A DNA stretch of 64,000 nt, taken from the NCBI GenBank assembly GCA_007378955.1, contig VMGY01000001.1:38804-102803 (forward strand), written 5' to 3'. Numbering within the stretch: the stretch's first letter is position 1; each line of letters starts with the position of its first letter. Origin of the DNA: Parcubacteria group bacterium Athens0714_12 (lineage in GTDB: Bacteria; Patescibacteriota; Patescibacteriia; UBA2591; VMGY01). A program made the translations under genes and the position numbers. The notes below the pieces were generated by a model, which saw only the letters and a program-made list of their open reading frames with translations, was not told the DNA's origin and made no database searches. This document shows positions 3,652 through 55,139 of the stretch, piece by piece.

Positions 3652-5820
3652 ATGAAACAAAATTCTGGTCTTACTTTAATAGAACTTATTATTACTATAA
3701 GTATTTTTATTATTGCCTCTTTGGGAATTTTAGGCCTTTTTTCTTATAGTTTTAAAACGGTCGGCAATAGCAAGGCAATTTTAACCGCGACAGGCTTGGC
3801 CGCCAAACAAATAGAAATTATCAGAAATATGCCTTATGATAAACTCGGAACAACGGAAGGCTGGCCGCCTGGCGATATTCCGTCTTCTCAAATAATAAAT
3901 CAAAACAAAATTAATTATACCATTCAAACGATTATTGAATATGTTGATGACCCTTATGACTCCCTATTCCCCGATGATACGACCGGAAATGATTACAAAA
4001 AAGCGGAAGTAATGGTTAGTTGGGATAAATTTTTTTCTATAAATCCAGTTAAGCTGACTACTAATGTCTGCGCCAAAGGATTAGAAATTCCTAATGGCGC
4101 CGGCGGCTTAAAAATTAATCTTTTTGACAATAATGGCAATCCGGTAAGTCAAGCTTCTGTTAAAATAGAAAATCTTGCTCTTGACCCAAATATTAAGATT
4201 AATAGAGAAACTAATAATGCGGGAATTTTGCAAATTTTAGACCTTCCTCCTTCCGGGGAAAATTATCATATCATTGTTTCCAAAGAGGGATACTCGCAAG
4301 ACTATACCATCGCGCCAGACTCTTTAGGCGCCTCTACTCCGCTTCAGCCAGATTTAAGAGTAATTGAGAAAGAGTTGACTGAAAAAACTTTTTCCATTGA
4401 TAAAATCAGCAGCTTAAAAATATCTACTTTAACAAAATATTGCTCTTCTGTTCCAAATATTTCTTTTAATATGCGAGGACAAAAATTAATCGGCCGAGAC
4501 CCCGATGTCTTTAAATATTACCAGAATTTAAGCACAAATAGTTCAGGAGAGTTAATTATTGATAATTTAGAATTTGATACTTATAATATAGCTTTAAACT
4601 CTCTGGCTTATGATCTTGCCGGCGCTAATCCCTTAATACCTTTGATACTCTTGCCTAATACCAACCAAAATTTTTATTTTATTTTAAAGCCTCATCAAGC
4701 TCATACTCTTTTAGCGACAGTTAAAGATAACAGCACGGGCTTAGTTTTATCGGGAGCGGAAGTAAAACTATCTAAAATCGGCTATGAAGAAACTTTAATC
4801 ACCGGCAAAGGCATTTGGCGGCAAACTGATTGGCAAGGAGGAAGCGGACAAGAAAATTGGGAGGAAGAAGATATGTATTTTGATGATGATGGAAATATTA
4901 ACACTAATAATTCTGAAGAAATGAAATTAGCTGGTGGCCATACTCAGCAAAATTTTAACGAAACATTTGATGACGCGGCTTATGAAAATTTTTCCGCCAC
5001 CACGGCTGATTGGAACACTACTTTAAAAGAATTAAGATTGCCTAAAATAGGAACGGACTTTTCTTCTTCCGCCACCGGGGAATCGCTAAAAATAAATTCC
5101 GCCGCTTATACGATTACTAAGGCTTATTTAAATGCCAGCCATACGTTAAACGGCGAAACAATAAATTATTATTTATCCGCTAATGGAGGCATTGATTGGG
5201 AAAATGTAATTTCCGGCGTTGAATATATTTTTATTAATCAAGGCAATGATTTGCGATGGAAAGCGGAATTATCCACGAATACTGTTTCTATCACGCCTTC
5301 TATTCAAAGCATCTCTATTAATTACACTGATTCAAATCCTTTTGCTAATAATGGCTTCTTAATATCTTCTTCTTATGATACCGGCACAAATAAAACGATT
5401 TGGGGCAATTTAAGCTGGGAACCTCAAAATCAAGCAATAGAATTAGGAGAATCACCAATAAAATTTCAAATTGCCGCGAATAATGACAAGGCGACTTGGA
5501 ATTTTAAAGGGCCTGATGGCACTGAAGAAACTTTTTATACCAGCCCGGACGCCTCTATTAATCCCATCCATAACAATCATCAATATATAAGATACAAAAT
5601 TTTACTTTCTACTGAAAACTCTTCTTTCAGCCCGATTGTTTCGGATATTACCATTGACTTTACTTCCGGCTGCAGCACCCCGGGTCAAGTCTTTTTTTCT
5701 CCTTTGGAAGAAACGGCTTACGATTTAGATATAAGCTTGGCGGGATATCAAGGTTATTTTGAAAGCATAAATGTTTCCGGAAATAATTCCACGAAAATTT
5801 TTTTAAATCCAAATCCATAA
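3652..5820 (+). CDS. Large pilin-like protein with a prepilin-type N-terminal cleavage/methylation domain
   Basis: The N-terminus 'GLTLIELIITISIFIIASLGILG' is a class III signal (G/LTLIE, Glu at +5). The 700-aa tail is Ser/Thr/Asn-rich. Confidence 0.7.
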   Translation: MKQNSGLTLIELIITISIFIIASLGILGLFSYSFKTVGNSKAILTATGLAAKQIEIIRNMPYDKLGTTEGWPPGDIPSSQIINQNKINYTIQTIIEYVDDPYDSLFPDDTTGNDYKKAEVMVSWDKFFSINPVKLTTNVCAKGLEIPNGAGGLKINLFDNNGNPVSQASVKIENLALDPNIKINRETNNAGILQILDLPPSGENYHIIVSKEGYSQDYTIAPDSLGASTPLQPDLRVIEKELTEKTFSIDKISSLKISTLTKYCSSVPNISFNMRGQKLIGRDPDVFKYYQNLSTNSSGELIIDNLEFDTYNIALNSLAYDLAGANPLIPLILLPNTNQNFYFILKPHQAHTLLATVKDNSTGLVLSGAEVKLSKIGYEETLITGKGIWRQTDWQGGSGQENWEEEDMYFDDDGNINTNNSEEMKLAGGHTQQNFNETFDDAAYENFSATTADWNTTLKELRLPKIGTDFSSSATGESLKINSAAYTITKAYLNASHTLNGETINYYLSANGGIDWENVISGVEYIFINQGNDLRWKAELSTNTVSITPSIQSISINYTDSNPFANNGFLISSSYDTGTNKTIWGNLSWEPQNQAIELGESPIKFQIAANNDKATWNFKGPDGTEETFYTSPDASINPIHNNHQYIRYKILLSTENSSFSPIVSDITIDFTSGCSTPGQVFFSPLEETAYDLDISLAGYQGYFESINVSGNNSTKIFLNPNP

Positions 5821-8815: not shown

Positions 8816-8886
8816 TTGAATAAAATACAAAAATAGTAGGTTTGTAATTCGTAAAATATAATGAGTTTTGCAACCATCTCAATAAC

Positions 8887-24168: not shown

Positions 24169-24191
24169 AAAACATTATAAAATTTTTTATA

Positions 24192-24366
24192 GAGATGGTT
24201 ACAAAACTGCTTCGTCGCGAAATTTAGATAGTTTCAGCCAAGACGAGGAAAACAAGCAAAATGATTTGAGTCGTAATAGAATTACGGCGAAAATCATTTT
24301 GCGCAGTTTGACGAAGTATTGGCTGAAAATAGCAAATTACAGCAGAAGTAGTTTTGTAACCATCTC
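24192..24366. repeat. 175-bp element bounded by 17-bp inverted repeats (GAGATGGTTACAAAACT / AGTTTTGTAACCATCTC) with nested internal palindromes
   Basis: The terminal inverted repeats are at 24192-24208 and 24350-24366. Inside are the nested palindromes CAAAATGATTT...AAATCATTTTG and CGTAAT-aga-ATTACG. Related motifs occur at 8863-8880 and 48384-48401. Confidence 0.6.
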
Positions 24367-24369
24367 ATA

Positions 24370-27665: not shown

Positions 27666-27756
27666 AATTATAATTATTATCGCGCTTGATATGTAATTAA
27701 TTACTTACATCCATTATACCAAAAACCGTCGTTTACGGCGATTTCTAAAATCTTAA

Positions 27757-27909
27757 ATAATAGATTCTGTGAATTACGAAATGCGTTTTTTAAAACAAAA
27801 ATACGCGGGTAGATTGGAGCCTCTGCTCCAATCTTAGCTAATCTTGCTCCGAGTAGAGGCTCGGAGCTACCCATTTCGTATTTCGTAATTCACAGATAGA
27901 TTATTAATT
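27757..27909. mobile_element. MITE-like mini-element with ~25-bp terminal inverted repeats and two internal GC-rich hairpins
   Basis: The left arm TAATAGATTCTGTGAATTACGAAATG pairs with the right arm CATTTCGTATTTCGTAATTCACAGATAGATTATTA. Inside are the hairpins AGATTGGAGC-ctct-GCTCCAATCT and GCTCCGAG-tagagg-CTCGGAGC. No ORF is present. Confidence 0.5.
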
Positions 27910-28174: not shown

Positions 28175-28183
28175 TGTGGATAA
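28175..28183. promoter_or_regulatory. Perfect DnaA-box 9-mer (TGTGGATAA, the reverse complement of TTATCCACA) in the promoter region of the LexA-MTase gene
   Basis: Exact match to the E. coli-type consensus. It sits about 30 bp upstream of the TATAAT at 28214-28219. Confidence 0.4.
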
Positions 28184-28213
28184 CTTATTGTTTTCATTTC
28201 GGTGAATGTTCGG

Positions 28214-28219
28214 TATAAT
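28214..28219 (+). promoter_or_regulatory. Consensus -10 hexamer TATAAT for the LexA-MTase gene, immediately followed by a GATC site
   Basis: 'ggTATAATGATCg' lies 69 nt upstream of the ATG at 28288. Confidence 0.4.
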
Positions 28220-28287: not shown

Positions 28288-29760
28288 TTTATGCCTACGC
28301 TTACTAAAAGACAAAAACAAATTTACGATTATATTAAAAGCTATGTAGAAAAAAATGGCCTCTCCCCTACTTTTAATGAAATAAAAAAACATTTCAAATT
28401 GTCGGCTGCTTCAACAGTCCATCAGCACATTGGGGCTTTGGTAGAAAAAGAAATGCTTATTAAAAATAATTACAACTCTCGCGGAATTGAATTAAATAAA
28501 AAAAATAGAAAAGATTTAATCAAAATTCCTCTTGCGGGAACTATTGCCGCCGGCCAACCAATTGAAACGTTCCAAACAAACGAAACAATCACGGTTCCTA
28601 AAAATCTTCTTTCAAAATCCGGCGAGCATTTTGCCCTTAAAGTTAAAGGCGACAGTATGATTGACGAAGGTATTTTTGACGACGACACTGTTATAATCAG
28701 AAAACAAGATACCATTGAAAACGGGGAAACTGCGGTCGCTCTGATAAACGGCAATGAGGTTACATTAAAAAAAATATACAAAGAAAAAAATCGCATCCGG
28801 CTTCAGCCGGCGAATCCAAATTTAAAACCTCTTTTTGTTAAAAATGTTATCATTCAGGGCAAAGTTATCAGCGCTTTTAGAAATATAGAAAAAATTGAAG
28901 AAGAAGATACTATTTTAAAATCTGACGAAAAATCAAAAGGACTTGCGGCAATAGAGCAAAAACATTATTTCAATAGAAATAATTTTGTTTTATACCATAG
29001 CGACTGCGTCTCAATGCTCAATAGTATGAAGGAAAACTCTGTGGATATGATTTTCGCTGATCCGCCTTATCTTCTTTCAAATGGCGGTTTTAGCGTTCAT
29101 GCCGGGCGGCGCGTAAGCGTTGATAAGGGCGAATGGGATAAAAGCAACGGACTTAAAAAAGATTTTGAATTTCATCTTGAATGGATACAAGCCGCGAGGC
29201 GCGTTCTAAAGCCGCACGGAACTATTTGGATTAGCGGCACTTACCATTCCATATATCAATGCGGTTTCGCGGTTCAGGTCGCCAAATTTCATATTTTAAA
29301 CGATATCGCGTGGTTCAAGCCAAACGCTTCTCCGAATTTAAGTTGCCGTTATTTCACCGCAAGCCACGAAACCTTGCTTTGGGCGCGTAAAGATAAAAAC
29401 GCAAAGCATGCTTTTGATTATGATTTGATGAAAAATGGCAACTGGCCGGAAGATCAGCTCAAAAAACCCGGGTTTCAGATGCGTTCGGTTTGGGCGATGG
29501 GAACGCCGAAACGGATTGAAAAAAAATTTGGGAAACATCCAACGCAAAAACCGGAGGATTTATTAAAAAGAATTATTCTCGCGAGTACAAATAAAGACGA
29601 TTTAGTTGTCGATCCATTTACCGGAAGTTCTACGACAGGAATCGCTTCCCATCTTTTAGGAAGGCGCTTTATCGGCATTGATACCGAAAAAAAATATTTA
29701 GATTTATCAATTAAACGATTTGAAGAATTAGAACGTAATTTAAAAAATCCATCAAATTAA
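28288..29760 (+). CDS. Fusion protein: a complete LexA repressor (wHTH + S24 autopeptidase) fused to a beta-class DPPY N6A/N4C DNA methyltransferase
   Basis: The N-terminus 'LTKRQKQIYDYI...GLSPTFNEI...ASTVHQHIGALVEKEML' is the LexA DNA-binding domain. It is followed by 'AAGQPI', the nucleophile 'VKGDSMIDEG' and the general base 'EVTLKKIY'. The C-terminal half carries motif IV 'IFADPPYLL' before motif I 'VVDPFTGSSTTG', which is the beta-class order. The two halves form one uninterrupted ORF. The track starts it at a TTG at 28267; I use the ATG at 28288. Confidence 0.75.
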   Translation, partial: FMPTLTKRQKQIYDYIKSYVEKNGLSPTFNEIKKHFKLSAASTVHQHIGALVEKEMLIKNNYNSRGIELNKKNRKDLIKIPLAGTIAAGQPIETFQTNETITVPKNLLSKSGEHFALKVKGDSMIDEGIFDDDTVIIRKQDTIENGETAVALINGNEVTLKKIYKEKNRIRLQPANPNLKPLFVKNVIIQGKVISAFRNIEKIEEEDTILKSDEKSKGLAAIEQKHYFNRNNFVLYHSDCVSMLNSMKENSVDMIFADPPYLLSNGGFSVHAGRRVSVDKGEWDKSNGLKKDFEFHLEWIQAARRVLKPHGTIWISGTYHSIYQCGFAVQVAKFHILNDIAWFKPNASPNLSCRYFTASHETLLWARKDKNAKHAFDYDLMKNGNWPEDQLKKPGFQMRSVWAMGTPKRIEKKFGKHPTQKPEDLLKRIILASTNKDDLVVDPFTGSSTTGIASHLLGRRFIGIDTEKKYLDLSIKRFEELERNLKNPSN

Positions 29761-29773
29761 ACATGAAAAATAT

Positions 29774-30418
29774 ATGAAAATTATAACTCGCGCAATGGCA
29801 ATAAATAATCTAAAAAAATATATCGGCCAAGATTTACAAAAGTTAGCTTTAAAGTACGGTATTACAACCTATAAAGCTGGAAAACAAAACAAGGGTTGGA
29901 AAGGTCTTATTCTAGAAATACTAGCCGGATTGGAAAACAATATTTCTAAAGCTCCTAATGGCTTATCATACGAATTAAAATCCGTTAGTTCGCATTATAT
30001 AAAAAACAAGCTTGTGCCAAAAGAAACTATGGCGATAACTATGATTAATCCGCAAGAGTTAAAAGCCCATTCTTTTTTTGAAAGCCATTGTTGGGCAAAA
30101 TTAAAATCTCTAATTTTTTGCGCTGTGATGTGGCATGGAAAAAACGCGAAAACATCGGAATTATTAAAAGTCATAAGCTTGGATTTTGCGGAAAATGATG
30201 ATTTAATAAAGGAAGTAAGGGATGATTATGACTTCATACGAAACAAGCTAATTATTAATGGCTTTGACGCATTAACTGGAAAAGATGGGAAATGGATACA
30301 AGCAAGAACAAAAGGTATTGGCGGCATAAATCCTCAAACAGGAAAAAAACGGCCGGTAACTCGCGCGTTTTACGCAAGGCCTATTTTGATAAAAAAATTT
30401 TTTGAAATGGCAAATTAA
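29774..30418 (+). CDS. MutH/Sau3AI-family (GATC-type) restriction endonuclease
   Basis: 'KGWKGLILEILAGL...GLSYELKSV...KETMAITMINPQEL' aligns with the MutH core 'KGWIGVLLEIWLG...LGVELKTIP...ETTFVCVAPL'. The C-terminal 'RAFYARP' matches MutH 'RGFYLKK'. Confidence 0.7.
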   Translation: MKIITRAMAINNLKKYIGQDLQKLALKYGITTYKAGKQNKGWKGLILEILAGLENNISKAPNGLSYELKSVSSHYIKNKLVPKETMAITMINPQELKAHSFFESHCWAKLKSLIFCAVMWHGKNAKTSELLKVISLDFAENDDLIKEVRDDYDFIRNKLIINGFDALTGKDGKWIQARTKGIGGINPQTGKKRPVTRAFYARPILIKKFFEMAN

Positions 30419-35308: not shown

Positions 35309-35806
35309 TCAGGTCTTTATTTCTAAAATTTTTTTAGTTTTAATTTCAGCTTCTTTTTCTATGTAAAATTTATTTATGCCGGGAATAATTCTAAGCCACT
35401 CTCTTATTAATTCAAATATTCGCCTGAATACTGTTTTTGCCTTTTTTAATAAAGACTCTATTTTTAAGGCCGTTTCTTCGCCTTTGGCCTTGAAACTGTT
35501 TTTAACTGGTTCATCTAAAGAAAAATAAATGCTTTCCAAGTCTTCTTCCAAAATATTCTCTATTTTGCTTAAAGCCGGGCTTTTACTCGGAGTTTTTGAA
35601 GTTTTTTCAATAGAAATCGCGGCTGTGGTTTTTAACGGCTTTTTTTTAACTCCAATTTCTTTTTCTTTCTTGTAATCCCTTGTTTCATTTTCCCGACTAA
35701 GTTCTTCTTCTATTTCAACTGATTCTTTTTCCAAGCTTTTCAAATTTATATCTTCTAATTTTTTTTCTAAATTATTTTTATAAACCATAAATAGATTATA
35801 CCACAA
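35309..35806 (-). CDS. Hypothetical charged/coiled-coil protein
   Basis: 165 aa, K/E-rich, with no TM segment and no recognisable motif. Confidence 0.3.
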   Translation of the reverse strand: MWYNLFMVYKNNLEKKLEDINLKSLEKESVEIEEELSRENETRDYKKEKEIGVKKKPLKTTAAISIEKTSKTPSKSPALSKIENILEEDLESIYFSLDEPVKNSFKAKGEETALKIESLLKKAKTVFRRIFELIREWLRIIPGINKFYIEKEAEIKTKKILEIKT

Positions 35807-35853
35807 ATTTTAAGAAAAAAAAGCTTGTTTTATTTTTCCTGTTATTTTGCCAC

Positions 35854-35862
35854 TTATCCACA
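35854..35862 (+). promoter_or_regulatory. Perfect DnaA-box 9-mer TTATCCACA (box 1) at about -35 of the giant Cys-repeat gene promoter
   Basis: Part of the 11-mer ACTTATCCACA, repeated 63 bp downstream. Confidence 0.4.
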
Positions 35863-35916
35863 TTTATGATTTTCTATAAATATGGTAAAATATAATTAAA
35901 TAATAATATGTCCTAC

Positions 35917-35925
35917 TTATCCACA
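35917..35925 (+). promoter_or_regulatory. Perfect DnaA-box 9-mer TTATCCACA (box 2) between the -10 (TATAAT at 35891-35896) and the SD/start
   Basis: Same 11-mer ACTTATCCACA, in direct orientation. Confidence 0.4.
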
Positions 35926-35953
35926 ATTGGAAATTGGGACGATGGAGGTTAGA

Positions 35954-38900
35954 ATGAAAAAATTTACTCACTGCTTGAAAAAAATGGGGACGGGAATAAT
36001 CATTTTCGCCGTTCTTTTTATTTTTCAAGCGCAAGCGCAAACACCGGAAACAGATCTTCTGCCCGTGGTAGACGCTCCGCTATCCGGCAATCCGATCATT
36101 ACGGACACGGCAACCGACACGCCCGAAGCAACGAGCGCGCCTGAAACCGGGCTTCTCGCTAAAGAAACAGCTCCCCCGCCTGAAGTCTTGCAAGACACGC
36201 AAATCAGCGCGGAAGATTTAGGCGCGGTGAATGCCAGAATTAAACCGGGAAATTTCTTTCATCCTTTCAAGCAATTCGGCAGGGATGTCCAGGAATTTTT
36301 TACTTTTGACCCGGTTAAAAACGCTGAATTAAAACTCAAACACGCCAACCAGGAATTGTCAGAAATCCAACAGCTCGTGGAAGAAAAAGGCATTGAAAAC
36401 ATTAACCCGAAAATTCTGACTAATTCGGTTGATTGGTTTGAAAACAAAATGGAAAATATTAAAAATGCTTCGGAAAAAATCAAAGGCCAAAAAACTAAAA
36501 ATCCCGAAGGAATTGAGGAATTATTGAATAACCTGACAGATAAACAAATAAAGGAACATAAAATTTTGGAAAAATTCAATGAAGGCATTACTGAAAATAA
36601 AGAAAAAATCGTTGGCGCCGAAGACGCTTTTGCCGCTTTAAAAGATGTCCAAAGCAATGTTCTTAAACATTTCGGTGAAATTTTGACAAATGTAGATGAA
36701 CAGGAAAAAATCCCCGCAAGATTGAGCGCGGTAGCGAACGAGCAGCAAGGAAGCGAATTTAAACTTATAAAAACAACGGAAATTTTGAAAAAACTGCAAG
36801 AACAAGCTCCTGAAGAAACAAAAGACGCGATTAAAAAAGCCCAAACGAAAACCATGGAATTATTACAAGAAGATATGAAAGCCATGCCCGCGGTTGTCAG
36901 AGCGGAAAAATTTAAAACTTACACCAATGCTTTGCCCGGCAATGAAACAATCCAATTAAGCGTTTTTGAAGACTTAAAACAACTACCGAACATCCCGCAG
37001 GATATCTTGAAAAAAATTGAGGAAGTCAAAGAATTCGCCGTTAAAAGATTTGAAGAAAAAGCTATTAAATTTAAACAACCAGAAGTTCAAGAAAAATTTT
37101 TTGAAGATTTGAAAGGCGATTCTTTGGATGACATTATGGTTTTGGAAGAATTGAAAGCGAAAATTACCGCCAAACAGGAATCCCTAAAGAAAAAAGTGGA
37201 ACAAAAAAATATTGAAGGAATGGAAAAATTTAAAAAGAAATTTACCGATGCCCAGTCGCAAGAACAGGCAAAACAATTTGAAAAATTAGTTAAGGAAATG
37301 ACTGCTAATCCAAATCCGAAAACTTTAAAATTAATCAGTGAATTAGAAACTCAAGTCGCCCAGGACCCGGAGAAAAAAGCTTTTATTGAGGAAATAAAAA
37401 CTAAAACCAAAGCGGAAATGGAAACTAAATTCAGAATGGAAGGCGAACGATTTTTTGACCGAATGAGTTCTTTGAATCCGGAAGATATGATGGTCTTCCA
37501 AAAAATGGAGCAAGACCAATTTTACGACCCAATGATGATAGAGCAATTTTCACAACATCAAACTAATCGCTTTAAAGAATATGTCCAAGGAATTGATAAC
37601 ACGGAAAATTTTGACCGCTTTAATAAACGTTTCGGAACAGAAGTGGTGCAAATAATAAAAACAAAAGACACGGAATTCAGCAATGTAATGCAGTTCAAGT
37701 CCCGTAAAATCGCGGAAGCGGAAATGCAATTAAAAGAAAATGAGGCGCGGATGAAAATGGAATTAGAATGGAAAAAATCGGAAAATGATTTTCAGATGAA
37801 ATTAAGGCGAGCGGCTAATGACGAAGCTAAAAAAGCGCTTTATGAAGAAAAAAGGCAAAAAGAATTATCTTTAGTTGACCAAGAATTTGAAACGAGAAAA
37901 AAAATGATGCAAGAAAGAATTAAATTTGACCCTTTCTGCGACGAAATATGCCAGGTGATTCAAAAACAATTTCTTGAGCAAGATTCAAATTACAGAAAAC
38001 AAAATATTATGGAAGACGCGCGGATGAGAGAGTTTGAAATGGAATTAAGGACTCAACCTGCTATGGGTGGCGGCGACCCGTTCCAGGGAAAATGCCAAAG
38101 CCCTGAAACTTGCATGAAATTCTGCAAGGAAAATCTTAATTTTTCCGCTTGCCAAATGCTTGCCCCAATGCAAATGCAAATGCCGCCGCAGACGCAGCCA
38201 GTTGAAGGGCAAATGCCGCAAAATATCTACGCGAACAATCCAATGTATGGACCTCCTCCTTGCCCGCCAGGACAAATTAATATGCCGAAAGGTTCCGGAC
38301 AATGGGTATGCACCGACGACCCTTATCAAAAAATATCAGAAACTTTCAAAAAATGCCCTCCCGGCTATAACTGGAATGACATAAAAGCTTTCTGCGAATT
38401 CAACCAAGTAATGTTCAAAACATCCTGTCCGCAAGGCGAGTATTGGGATGAAGGGAAAAAAACTTGCATCAGGCCGGGAATGCCTCAAGCGTGTCCGCCT
38501 AGTCAATACTGGGACCCTGGAAAACAAGCTTGCGTAAGCTCTGGACAAAATCCTTGTCCGCCTAACCAATATTGGGACGCGGGAAAAAATGGCTGCGCGC
38601 AATACAAAACAGAACAAGCTTGTCCTCAAGGCCAATACTGGGACTCTGGCTTGCAAACTTGCAGAGGACAACAAATAACTCAACCAATGCCTGTTTTCTG
38701 CGGTCCGGGAGAATCTTGGGATAATATTCGCGGCTGTGTCCGTGAAAATTTCCAACAATGCGGTCCAGGCGAATATTTTGACTTCTATGAAAAACGTTGC
38801 AAAACAGACCAATGGAAATCTTGCCCGAGCGGCGAATACTGGGACCAGGGAAGAAATAGTTGTATTAGGGATATGATGGCTCAACCAGTTGAACAATGCG

Positions 38901-39778
38901 CTCAAGGATATTTCTGGGATTTCTATAAAAAACAATGCGTGAAAGATATGTATGCGCCACCACCCCCTGTTACTCCGCCTCAAGCCTGTCCGGCAGTTAT
39001 GCCTCGTCAATGTAACCCAGGCGAAACACCTACTTATGGTAATTGCGGCCCTTCCTGCACTATCCAATCCGCAACACCTTCCTGCCCATCAGGCCAATGG
39101 TGGTCTTCATCTGAAAATCGCTGTGCAGGCGGCGCCACTCCTACGCCAATAACAGGGGGTTGCGCCAGTATTATAGATAAAAACGTTTGCATGAGTAAAC
39201 CTGAATGCGGCGTTTGGTGCAGCGGAGATCCAAATCCGTGTTACGGACCAGGGCGCACCTGTGGAGGAAGTGGTACTTGCGGCAATAAAATCTGTGAAGG
39301 AAATGAAACAACAACTTCCTGCCCATCTGATTGCGGCGGCACTCCTCCTCCATCAGGCGGAGTCTGCGGCAATGGAACTTGTGAAAGCAGTGAAACGATG
39401 ACTTCCTGTCCAAGCGACTGCGGAACAACAAATTCCACTTGTCCATCAACCATTTACAACAACTACACTACTGGTTTTGCCTGTAATTATTCAAATTGCC
39501 CGAACGGCTGTATCTTTGACTACAAAGGCTGTCCTAACGGCTGCATAACCAGCACGACTATTTGCGGCAATGGCGTATGTGATAATGGAGAAACAACAAC
39601 CTCCTGCCCATCTGATTGCGGCGGCACTCCTCCTCCATCAGGCGGAGTCTGCGGCAATGGAACTTGTGAAAGCAATGAAACGATGACTTCCTGTCCATCT
39701 GATTGCGGCAATGTCCCGCCTCCGGGCTCTATCCTTCAAGCAATTCTTAATTTCTTTAAAAAGCTTTTCAGCAGATAA
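35954..39778 (+). CDS. Giant secreted protein: signal peptide, ~600-aa K/E-rich helical region, nine CPxGxYWDxGxxxC repeats, and C-terminal CGNGxCExxET..CPSDCG repeats
   Basis: The start is placed at the ATG at 35954, after GGAGG. The signal peptide is 'MKKFTHCLKKMGTGIIIFAVLFIFQAQAQ'. The repeats are visible directly, and two C-terminal blocks are near-identical at the DNA level. Confidence 0.7.
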   Translation: MKKFTHCLKKMGTGIIIFAVLFIFQAQAQTPETDLLPVVDAPLSGNPIITDTATDTPEATSAPETGLLAKETAPPPEVLQDTQISAEDLGAVNARIKPGNFFHPFKQFGRDVQEFFTFDPVKNAELKLKHANQELSEIQQLVEEKGIENINPKILTNSVDWFENKMENIKNASEKIKGQKTKNPEGIEELLNNLTDKQIKEHKILEKFNEGITENKEKIVGAEDAFAALKDVQSNVLKHFGEILTNVDEQEKIPARLSAVANEQQGSEFKLIKTTEILKKLQEQAPEETKDAIKKAQTKTMELLQEDMKAMPAVVRAEKFKTYTNALPGNETIQLSVFEDLKQLPNIPQDILKKIEEVKEFAVKRFEEKAIKFKQPEVQEKFFEDLKGDSLDDIMVLEELKAKITAKQESLKKKVEQKNIEGMEKFKKKFTDAQSQEQAKQFEKLVKEMTANPNPKTLKLISELETQVAQDPEKKAFIEEIKTKTKAEMETKFRMEGERFFDRMSSLNPEDMMVFQKMEQDQFYDPMMIEQFSQHQTNRFKEYVQGIDNTENFDRFNKRFGTEVVQIIKTKDTEFSNVMQFKSRKIAEAEMQLKENEARMKMELEWKKSENDFQMKLRRAANDEAKKALYEEKRQKELSLVDQEFETRKKMMQERIKFDPFCDEICQVIQKQFLEQDSNYRKQNIMEDARMREFEMELRTQPAMGGGDPFQGKCQSPETCMKFCKENLNFSACQMLAPMQMQMPPQTQPVEGQMPQNIYANNPMYGPPPCPPGQINMPKGSGQWVCTDDPYQKISETFKKCPPGYNWNDIKAFCEFNQVMFKTSCPQGEYWDEGKKTCIRPGMPQACPPSQYWDPGKQACVSSGQNPCPPNQYWDAGKNGCAQYKTEQACPQGQYWDSGLQTCRGQQITQPMPVFCGPGESWDNIRGCVRENFQQCGPGEYFDFYEKRCKTDQWKSCPSGEYWDQGRNSCIRDMMAQPVEQCAQGYFWDFYKKQCVKDMYAPPPPVTPPQACPAVMPRQCNPGETPTYGNCGPSCTIQSATPSCPSGQWWSSSENRCAGGATPTPITGGCASIIDKNVCMSKPECGVWCSGDPNPCYGPGRTCGGSGTCGNKICEGNETTTSCPSDCGGTPPPSGGVCGNGTCESSETMTSCPSDCGTTNSTCPSTIYNNYTTGFACNYSNCPNGCIFDYKGCPNGCITSTTICGNGVCDNGETTTSCPSDCGGTPPPSGGVCGNGTCESNETMTSCPSDCGNVPPPGSILQAILNFFKKLFSR

Positions 39779-48353: not shown

Positions 48354-48412
48354 AAAACTTTATTTAATCCCTAAATGTATAATGAGATGGTTGTAAAACT
48401 CTTTTTTCTATT

Positions 48413-54731: not shown

Positions 54732-55139
54732 TTAGGATTTCAAATTTTGTATTTCGAATTTTAACAATCTCTTCTCCAATCTCTCCATCTTTAAAGCGTC
54801 TTTTTCTTTCTGATGGTCATATCCCAATAAATGCAAAAGGCCATGAATCAATAAAATTTCTATTTCTTTTTTTATGGAATGTTTTTTCTCTTTCGCCTGC
54901 CTTTTTGCCTGTGGATAACAAATAATAATTTCCTTAACATCTTCAAAACTTAATACATCGGTGATACGATTTTTTTTTCTGTAAATTTTATTTAAATTTT
55001 TTATCGCCTTGTCCCCGACAAAAGCAATGGAAATTTCCTTGCTTTCTTTTTCCGCCATTTCTTTTAAACATTCTTTAATTATCTTTTTTATCCATCCTTT
55101 GCTAATCGACGCTTTAACTAAATTATTAATTTCAATCAT
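54732..55139 (-). CDS. ybeY: Endoribonuclease YbeY
   Basis: 'HGLLHLLGYDH' zinc motif. Confidence 0.85.
   Translation of the reverse strand: MIEINNLVKASISKGWIKKIIKECLKEMAEKESKEISIAFVGDKAIKNLNKIYRKKNRITDVLSFEDVKEIIICYPQAKRQAKEKKHSIKKEIEILLIHGLLHLLGYDHQKEKDALKMERLEKRLLKFEIQNLKS

Follow-up and report, generated by a model that had tools for sequence, protein, structure and literature searches.

The predicted promoter of a gene encoding a giant secreted protein with cysteine-rich repeats is bracketed in this Parcubacteria genome by two perfect copies of the 9-mer TTATCCACA, and a third copy lies at the predicted promoter of a gene encoding a LexA-methyltransferase fusion. This word is a high-affinity DnaA box in many phyla, and DnaA-controlled promoters have been established in E. 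coli, B. subtilis, Caulobacter and Pseudomonas. The locus raises the question of whether these copies are regulatory sites at all and, if so, which factor recognizes them. Gene regulation in CPR/Patescibacteria is almost unstudied, and most members of this group are unculturable.

The box word in the window and in related genomes

The window (the whole stretch of DNA analyzed here, 64 kb long) was subjected to a word count, which located four perfect copies of the DnaA-box 9-mer TTATCCACA (TTATNCACA):

35854-35862, plus strand: box 1
35917-35925, plus strand: box 2
28175-28183, minus strand: box 3
54910-54918, minus strand: fourth copy, inside the ybeY coding sequence (codons I-I-C-Y-P-Q)

Our recount reproduced the positions and strands that a preliminary description had given for the first three copies, as well as its pair of 11-mers ACTTATCCACA in direct orientation 63 bp apart (starting at 35852 and 35915); its tally of only three copies overlooked the one in ybeY. 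In the 11-mer form box 3 reads AGTTATCCACA, unlike boxes 1 and 2. The extended form of the box is A(G/C)TTATCCACA. Dinucleotide-preserving shuffles of the 64-kb window give an expectation of 0.36 copies of TTATCCACA against the four observed (close to the earlier rough estimate of fewer than 0.5), and none of 100 shuffles contained at least four. Three of the four copies are intergenic and promoter-adjacent; all three boxes listed previously do adjoin predicted promoters, as had been claimed. One-mismatch variants are in mild excess in the window (20 vs 13.4 expected) and thus barely enriched, so the signal is specific to the perfect word.

The comparison was extended to 132 kb of DNA from this genome and five relatives. 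Its 11.3 kb of intergenic DNA contains 8 perfect boxes vs 0.10 expected (the mean over 150 permuted words of the same composition, none of which exceeded 2), an enrichment of ~80-fold in which the absolute box density is inflated by most loci having been reached via the two box-bearing genes, the orthologues themselves being chosen without regard to box presence. The coding DNA of the same 132 kb shows no enrichment (1 perfect box vs 1.17 expected), and because of this match to expectation the ybeY copy is probably a chance occurrence outside the system. When all 9-mers occurring in four or more of 102 intergenic segments (15 kb) were ranked against a second-order Markov model, TGTGGATAA stood at the top (15 copies in 13 segments vs 0.18 expected, Poisson p ~3e-24), followed by overlapping words that extend it to AGTTATCCACA. 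The possibility raised at the outset that the 9-mer might be part of a dispersed repeat, with no preference for promoters, is at odds with this enrichment and with the flanks of the sites, which are unrelated past 9-11 nt.

Beyond the two promoters discussed below, intergenic boxes were found at the following places in related loci:

L085: after a terminator, just upstream of adk
L084: between SerRS and a 61-aa gene
L086: shortly after a TATAAT, ahead of a XerC/D-like integrase gene
L094: upstream of a PIN-domain gene

At the place in L084 that is syntenic with the integrase-gene box of L086, a one-mismatch box is present. Distant CPR loci fetched via MiaB (at most 57% identity) have no intergenic box in ~20 kb of intergenic DNA, their 5 box copies being all coding, which leaves the extent of the regulon uncertain; these loci were of no help in aligning promoters. 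The database contained no exact match to the MiaB-like protein of the window, and a search of metagenome contigs with the VirD4-like protein returned one 2-kb fragment, which stops short of the promoters.

The window is an ordinary stretch of CPR chromosome by Pfam scans of all large ORFs, with genes for type IV pilus/T2SS components, GAPDH, EF-Ts, S2, release factors, FtsW, DnaE, ThrRS, Pif1 helicase, DnaX, a GGDEF protein, a VirD4-like ATPase, MiaB, MiaA, GatB, NrdD, FtsZ, FtsA, YbeY and HisRS. A mobile-element or ICE origin was considered and ruled out, housekeeping genes lying all round (dnaX and the genes for the GGDEF protein, MiaB and MiaA). In agreement with the preliminary description, neither dnaA nor oriC was detected in the window: the Pfam scans and tblastn were both negative for dnaA, and the cumulative GC skew is monotonic, with no turning point. 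A tblastn search with B. subtilis DnaA gave no match in any compared locus. The DNA adjoining the right end of the window could be followed for a further 9.8 kb (L088 and L089, 100% identical), and this extension carries genes for ParB, TopA and DprA and tRNA genes, with neither dnaA nor oriC. The nearby ParB suggests that the origin region is perhaps not far. At positions 1-2100 of L089 (~8-10 kb past the right end of the window) three tRNA-like genes on the minus strand adjoin parB, and the same contig has a TTATACACA box in intergenic DNA beside a radical-SAM gene.

Once words that overlap the DnaA box are set aside, the intergenic ranking is led by a dispersed repeat of ~18 nt, AGTTTTG(T/C)AACCATCTCA, which lies in intergenic DNA, in the window mostly beside gene 3' ends, and is often found near TAATTCGTAAAAT. 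Its approximate coordinates are:

8863-8880, plus strand, window
24183-24200, minus strand, window
24349-24366, plus strand, window
48375-48392, minus strand, window
~8564, minus strand, L082
~7621, minus strand, L092
~7680, plus strand, L092

One inverted pair of the repeat is located inside the convergent intergenic region 24169-24369. This element could represent MITE ends or be associated with terminators.

Promoters of the LexA-methyltransferase and giant genes

The features of the LexA-methyltransferase locus are as follows:

28175..28185, minus strand: box 3 in its 11-mer form AGTTATCCACA (plus-strand reading TGTGGATAACT), at about -51 to -43 of the predicted promoter
28191..28219, plus strand: core promoter predicted by consensus scan (TTTTCA, 17 nt, TATAAT)
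28198-28213, plus strand: direct repeat TTCGGTGAATGTTCGG in the -35/-10 spacer, candidate LexA operator
28291..29760, plus strand: fusion of LexA DNA-binding, S24 peptidase and N6/N4 DNA methyltransferase domains (Pfam scan)

The preliminary description had treated this gene as accessory. That label does not hold, as the fusion (LexA_DNA_bind, Peptidase_S24 and N6_N4_Mtase) is widely conserved in CPR, with 7998 matches at E<1e-20, near all of the best 120 being three-domain proteins, and with proteins named from Woesebacteria and Parcubacteria among the matches. Judging by its domain architecture and distribution, we regard the LexA-S24-methyltransferase fusion as the CPR form of LexA and not as an accessory restriction-modification gene. 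In the window it is followed by a MutH/Sau3AI-family gene (29774-30418), the downstream gene being different in other genomes. On phage contig L102 there is a stand-alone methyltransferase domain 71% identical to that of the fusion; the viral contigs searched with the LexA-methyltransferase yielded this type of stand-alone phage methyltransferase without a box, plus incomplete contigs.

Downstream of box 3, the -35 hexamer follows after 7 nt and the TATAAT at 28214-28219 after exactly 30 nt. The same arrangement was found in all six LexA-methyltransferase promoters compared (the window and five loci, 58-100% protein identity), listed here with protein identity to the window gene product and the distance from the box to the -10 hexamer:

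Window: 100%, 30 nt
L090: 91%, 30 nt
L091: 71%, 30 nt
L092: 69%, 30 nt
L093, Woesebacteria GW2011_GWB1_39_10: 63%, 31 nt
L099: 58%, 29 nt

The block TGTGGATAAC is present upstream in six of six, including the one Woesebacterium, and is the sole invariant contiguous block in the alignment of these promoters; the box keeps a fixed position 6-7 bp upstream of the -35 hexamer, outside the core promoter. The gene upstream varies by genome (Pif1, Fic, rpoC, HerA-like, dnaX) while the box stays, and the box therefore belongs to the LexA-methyltransferase promoter. A second perfect box occurs in L092, 65 bp further upstream and in the same orientation (4861-4869 and 4926-4934). This 65-bp pair echoes the 63-bp pair of the giant gene, and the two may reflect a recurrent layout of six helical turns.

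The -35/-10 spacer has a conserved element of its own, a direct repeat of the form TTC(G/T)(G/A)-N6-TTC(G/T)(G/A) that is kept in six of six promoters (the window, L090, L091, L092, L093 and L099). Elsewhere in the window this candidate LexA repeat is not enriched (5 vs 4 expected). The 600-bp intergenic region between the Pif1 and LexA-methyltransferase genes also contains a long stable hairpin (27756-27904, plus strand; MFE -65.8 kcal/mol, z = -10.3 vs shuffles), which matched no Rfam family at the gathering threshold and could be a structured RNA or the remnant of a palindromic mobile element.

The second group of promoters is that of the giant DUF5667 gene, with the following features in the window:

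35309..35788, minus strand: divergent gene for a small charged protein (165 aa), no Pfam match
35852..35862, plus strand: box 1 (11-mer ACTTATCCACA), between two divergent predicted promoters
35883..35896, plus strand: -10 region of the giant gene, TGGTAAAAT overlapping TATAAT, predicted as read from the sequence
35915..35925, plus strand: box 2 (11-mer ACTTATCCACA), at about +15 to +27, inside the 5' UTR predicted for the giant gene
35954..39778, plus strand: gene for the giant secreted DUF5667 protein (1274 aa, Cys-rich repeats; Pfam scan)

The GenBank start of the giant gene is an alternative ATG at 35942 (1278 aa), and its product is 100% identical to protein P0001 of Parcubacteria group bacterium Athens1014_10. 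Box 1 is separated by 20 nt from the downstream extended -10 TGGTAAAAT (35883-35891) and by 28 nt from the TATAAT (35891-35896); the consensus promoter scan had omitted this promoter because it has no good -35 hexamer. Box 2 is located between the -10 region and the Shine-Dalgarno sequence GGAGG (35944-35948) that precedes the ATG at 35954. The two boxes, in the same orientation and 63 bp apart, are separated by 6.0 helical turns. On its other side, box 1 sits 53 nt upstream of the TATAAT of the divergent small gene. The latter has a perfect extended -10 TGGTATAAT (35795-35803, minus strand) that ends only 6 nt before its ATG, so its mRNA is probably leaderless.

Among the promoters of the giant gene and its five orthologues (62%, 61%, 45%, 43% and 45% protein identity), four of the six contain a match to TTATNCACA and a fifth carries a copy with one mismatch. 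The orthologous boxes are:

L082: AGTTATCCACA, 22 nt before TATAAT (TGc extended -10)
L083: AGTTATGCACA, 30 nt before TAAAAT (TGG extended -10)
L085: TGTGGATAA, opposite orientation, 30 nt before TATAAT and 7 nt upstream of the -35 hexamer TTGAAA
L086: TGTGGAAAA, one mismatch, 12 nt before TATAAT

No clear box could be detected in the 360 bp upstream of the giant gene in L084. An extended -10 after the box is also found in L082 (TGcTATAAT) and L083 (TGGTAAAAT). These two loci retain the gene order giant-MiaB-MiaA, and their upstream neighbours differ. Box 2 has no counterpart in the orthologues checked (L082, L083 and L085) and is therefore lineage-specific. Overall, the sequence comparison argues that the boxes are real regulatory sites, because they are fixed at promoters and kept in distant relatives with diverged flanks.

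Candidate binding factors

A sigma-factor -35 element was ruled out, as the box occurs in either orientation and its spacing to the -10 hexamer varies between promoters, which identifies the box as the site of a factor. DnaA appears to be the most economical candidate for this factor, because the perfect 9-mer and its AG flank match sites that are occupied in E. coli. The AG-TTATCCACA flank is found at the ChIP-seq-occupied sites oriC R4, datA, purH and polA, and the E. coli table shows a preference for gAG/aAG before the box (PMC11317965). The CPR boxes conform to it: in the six LexA-methyltransferase promoters position -1 is G in all six and position -2 is A in five, and AG precedes the box at several other sites as well; both giant-gene boxes read AC. 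As at known DnaA-regulated promoters, the box adjoins a predicted core promoter and is conserved in orthologous promoters.

Several observations count against DnaA. Most sites bound in E. coli cells are pairs of boxes spaced by 2-3 bp, and of 32 consensus single boxes only 13 are occupied (PMC11317965); the CPR layout departs from this rule, as no partner box is present at 2-3 bp from any box (the best 9-mers match at 1-6 of 9 positions, mostly at no more than 4). The genes dnaE, dnaX and nrdD are all present in the window without a box, and a giant surface protein would not seem an obvious DnaA target. On balance, we consider it fairly probable that the boxes are single high-affinity DnaA-box operators, kept by selection beside sigma-70-type promoters, with DnaA as the binder.

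The main alternative is a different CPR transcription factor that recognizes AGTTATCCACA and controls a small regulon, its resemblance to the DnaA box being coincidental or convergent. The single boxes lacking a partner at 2-3 bp would be accommodated by such a factor, as would the choice of the LexA-methyltransferase and giant genes (neither is a classic DnaA target) and the strict phasing at -47, which is typical of a dedicated activator; that no dnaA was found in the window, in its 9.8-kb extension or in the compared loci points the same way. On the other hand, a match at nine of nine positions together with the AG flank of validated DnaA sites would be a striking coincidence, and the box sites have no candidate factor gene as a constant neighbour. 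DnaA is present almost universally, and regulators are scarce in CPR genomes. We therefore regard a different factor as unlikely. It is less probable still that DnaA does bind and the boxes are chromosomal titration sites that buffer free DnaA, with no direct effect on promoters. Chromosomal boxes have been documented to titrate DnaA in E. coli (PMC12371093), and such a role agrees with the confinement of perfect high-affinity boxes to intergenic DNA; yet it needs neither a -10 spacing conserved within 1 nt in six genomes nor the repeated use of the same orthologous promoters, and no datA-like cluster is seen.

The presence of the box in every LexA-methyltransferase promoter compared (6/6) could also mean that it is the autoregulatory operator of the LexA-methyltransferase itself, i.e. 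a CPR SOS box, as lexA genes are usually autoregulated. This we hold to be a slim chance, since LexA binds as a dimer whereas the box is a single asymmetric 9-10-mer with no second unit, the classic position of a LexA operator is already held by the spacer repeat TTCNN-N6-TTCNN, and the other box sites are without that direct repeat. Chance, local duplication, a dispersed repeat or a cryptic origin can hardly account for the pattern. The identical 11-mers at 35852 and 35915 allow box 2 to be a recent copy of box 1, and the genome does hold dispersed repeats. However, chance is excluded by the statistics on the window, the 132 kb and the 9-mer ranking; a repeat is contradicted by flanks common to the sites only up to 11 nt and by the conservation of the box in other genomes; and a cryptic origin would have only two boxes, no dnaA/dnaN, no skew switch and housekeeping genes around it.

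Proposed regulation and comparison with known systems

With DnaA as the preferred binder, the boxes would be bound through its domain IV, DnaA acting as a transcription factor, and expression of the LexA-methyltransferase and giant DUF5667 genes would track how much free DnaA is present or how active it is. Through the boxes, the adjoining genes are thus probably coupled to the state of replication. Together, the box and the spacer direct repeat (presumably bound by LexA) would give the LexA-methyltransferase gene a two-input promoter. With phasing kept within ~1 nt over a very large evolutionary distance, the bound factor would seem to touch RNA polymerase, or LexA in the spacer, in a stereospecific way, which does not resemble simple occlusion; the position of the box would fit polymerase contact or LexA cooperation at least as well as occlusion, so that we lean towards activation or co-regulation at this promoter rather than the repression that the preliminary description had proposed. 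At the giant gene, boxes 1 and 2, lying 63 bp apart on the same face of the DNA, could clamp or loop the promoter or bracket RNA polymerase, and in this genome repression at high DnaA is plausible and is the sign we lean to.

In a broader reading, which we consider possible rather than probable, CPR, whose regulators are very few, recruited DnaA as a conserved input to the radiation-wide LexA-methyltransferase gene, forming an ancient DnaA-plus-LexA promoter that would link initiation, SOS and methylation; the DnaA input would extend in some Parcubacteria to lineage-specific targets, among them the giant DUF5667 gene, and would place DnaA among the main global regulators of these minimal cells. 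Whichever factor is involved, a short, invariant and precisely placed cis-element accompanies a gene present across the radiation, and the analysis yielded a candidate CPR LexA operator as a separate result. If the binder is DnaA, replication status would feed both the LexA-methyltransferase circuit and the expression of a major surface protein that may take part in host contact, and the DnaA regulon concept would be extended to a new superphylum and a new class of targets.

Our literature search found no description of direct DnaA control of lexA, and nothing relevant on DnaA boxes in CPR, on LexA-methyltransferase fusions or on a DnaA box at lexA, which is weak evidence of novelty. The closest counterparts are the DnaA-regulated promoters of E. 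coli (nrdAB, polA, purH, mioC, dnaA, rpoH and uvrB/DARS1), which resemble the CPR promoters in the word TTATCCACA, its AG flank, the promoter-adjacent position of the box, targets in DNA metabolism and an initiator doubling as a transcription factor. They differ in that the E. coli sites occupied in vivo are mostly double boxes whereas the CPR sites are single perfect boxes, in the identity of the CPR targets (the LexA-methyltransferase fusion and the giant surface protein) and in the radiation-wide phasing at about -47. The DnaA regulons of B. subtilis and Caulobacter (sda, ywlC and yydA; gcrA, ftsZ and podJ) likewise have boxes at promoters away from the origin and let cell-cycle or stress genes respond to replication status, and the DnaA response of B. 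subtilis runs parallel to its LexA response; unlike the single boxes of CPR, their sites are usually clusters of several degenerate boxes.

The same 9-mer is used at oriC, datA, DARS and the B. subtilis clusters, where high-affinity boxes serve as nucleation points. Such clusters need at least 3-5 boxes, whereas at most two boxes, 63-65 bp apart, occur per site here. Nor were the further hallmarks of oriC (a box cluster, an AT-rich unwinding element, a skew switch and, usually, a dnaA/dnaN neighbourhood) found at 35.9 or 28.2 kb, and the IHF sites that datA and DARS2 need are likewise absent. The spacer element has its own parallel in the alphaproteobacterial LexA operator GTTC-N7-GTTC, another direct repeat whose units recur every 11 bp over the -35/-10 spacer; the CPR repeat differs from it in sequence and is a candidate operator distinct from the DnaA box. 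Overall, the role of DnaA as a transcription factor is already well established, and what would be new is the CPR setting, the targets, the single-box architecture and the pairing with a candidate LexA operator.
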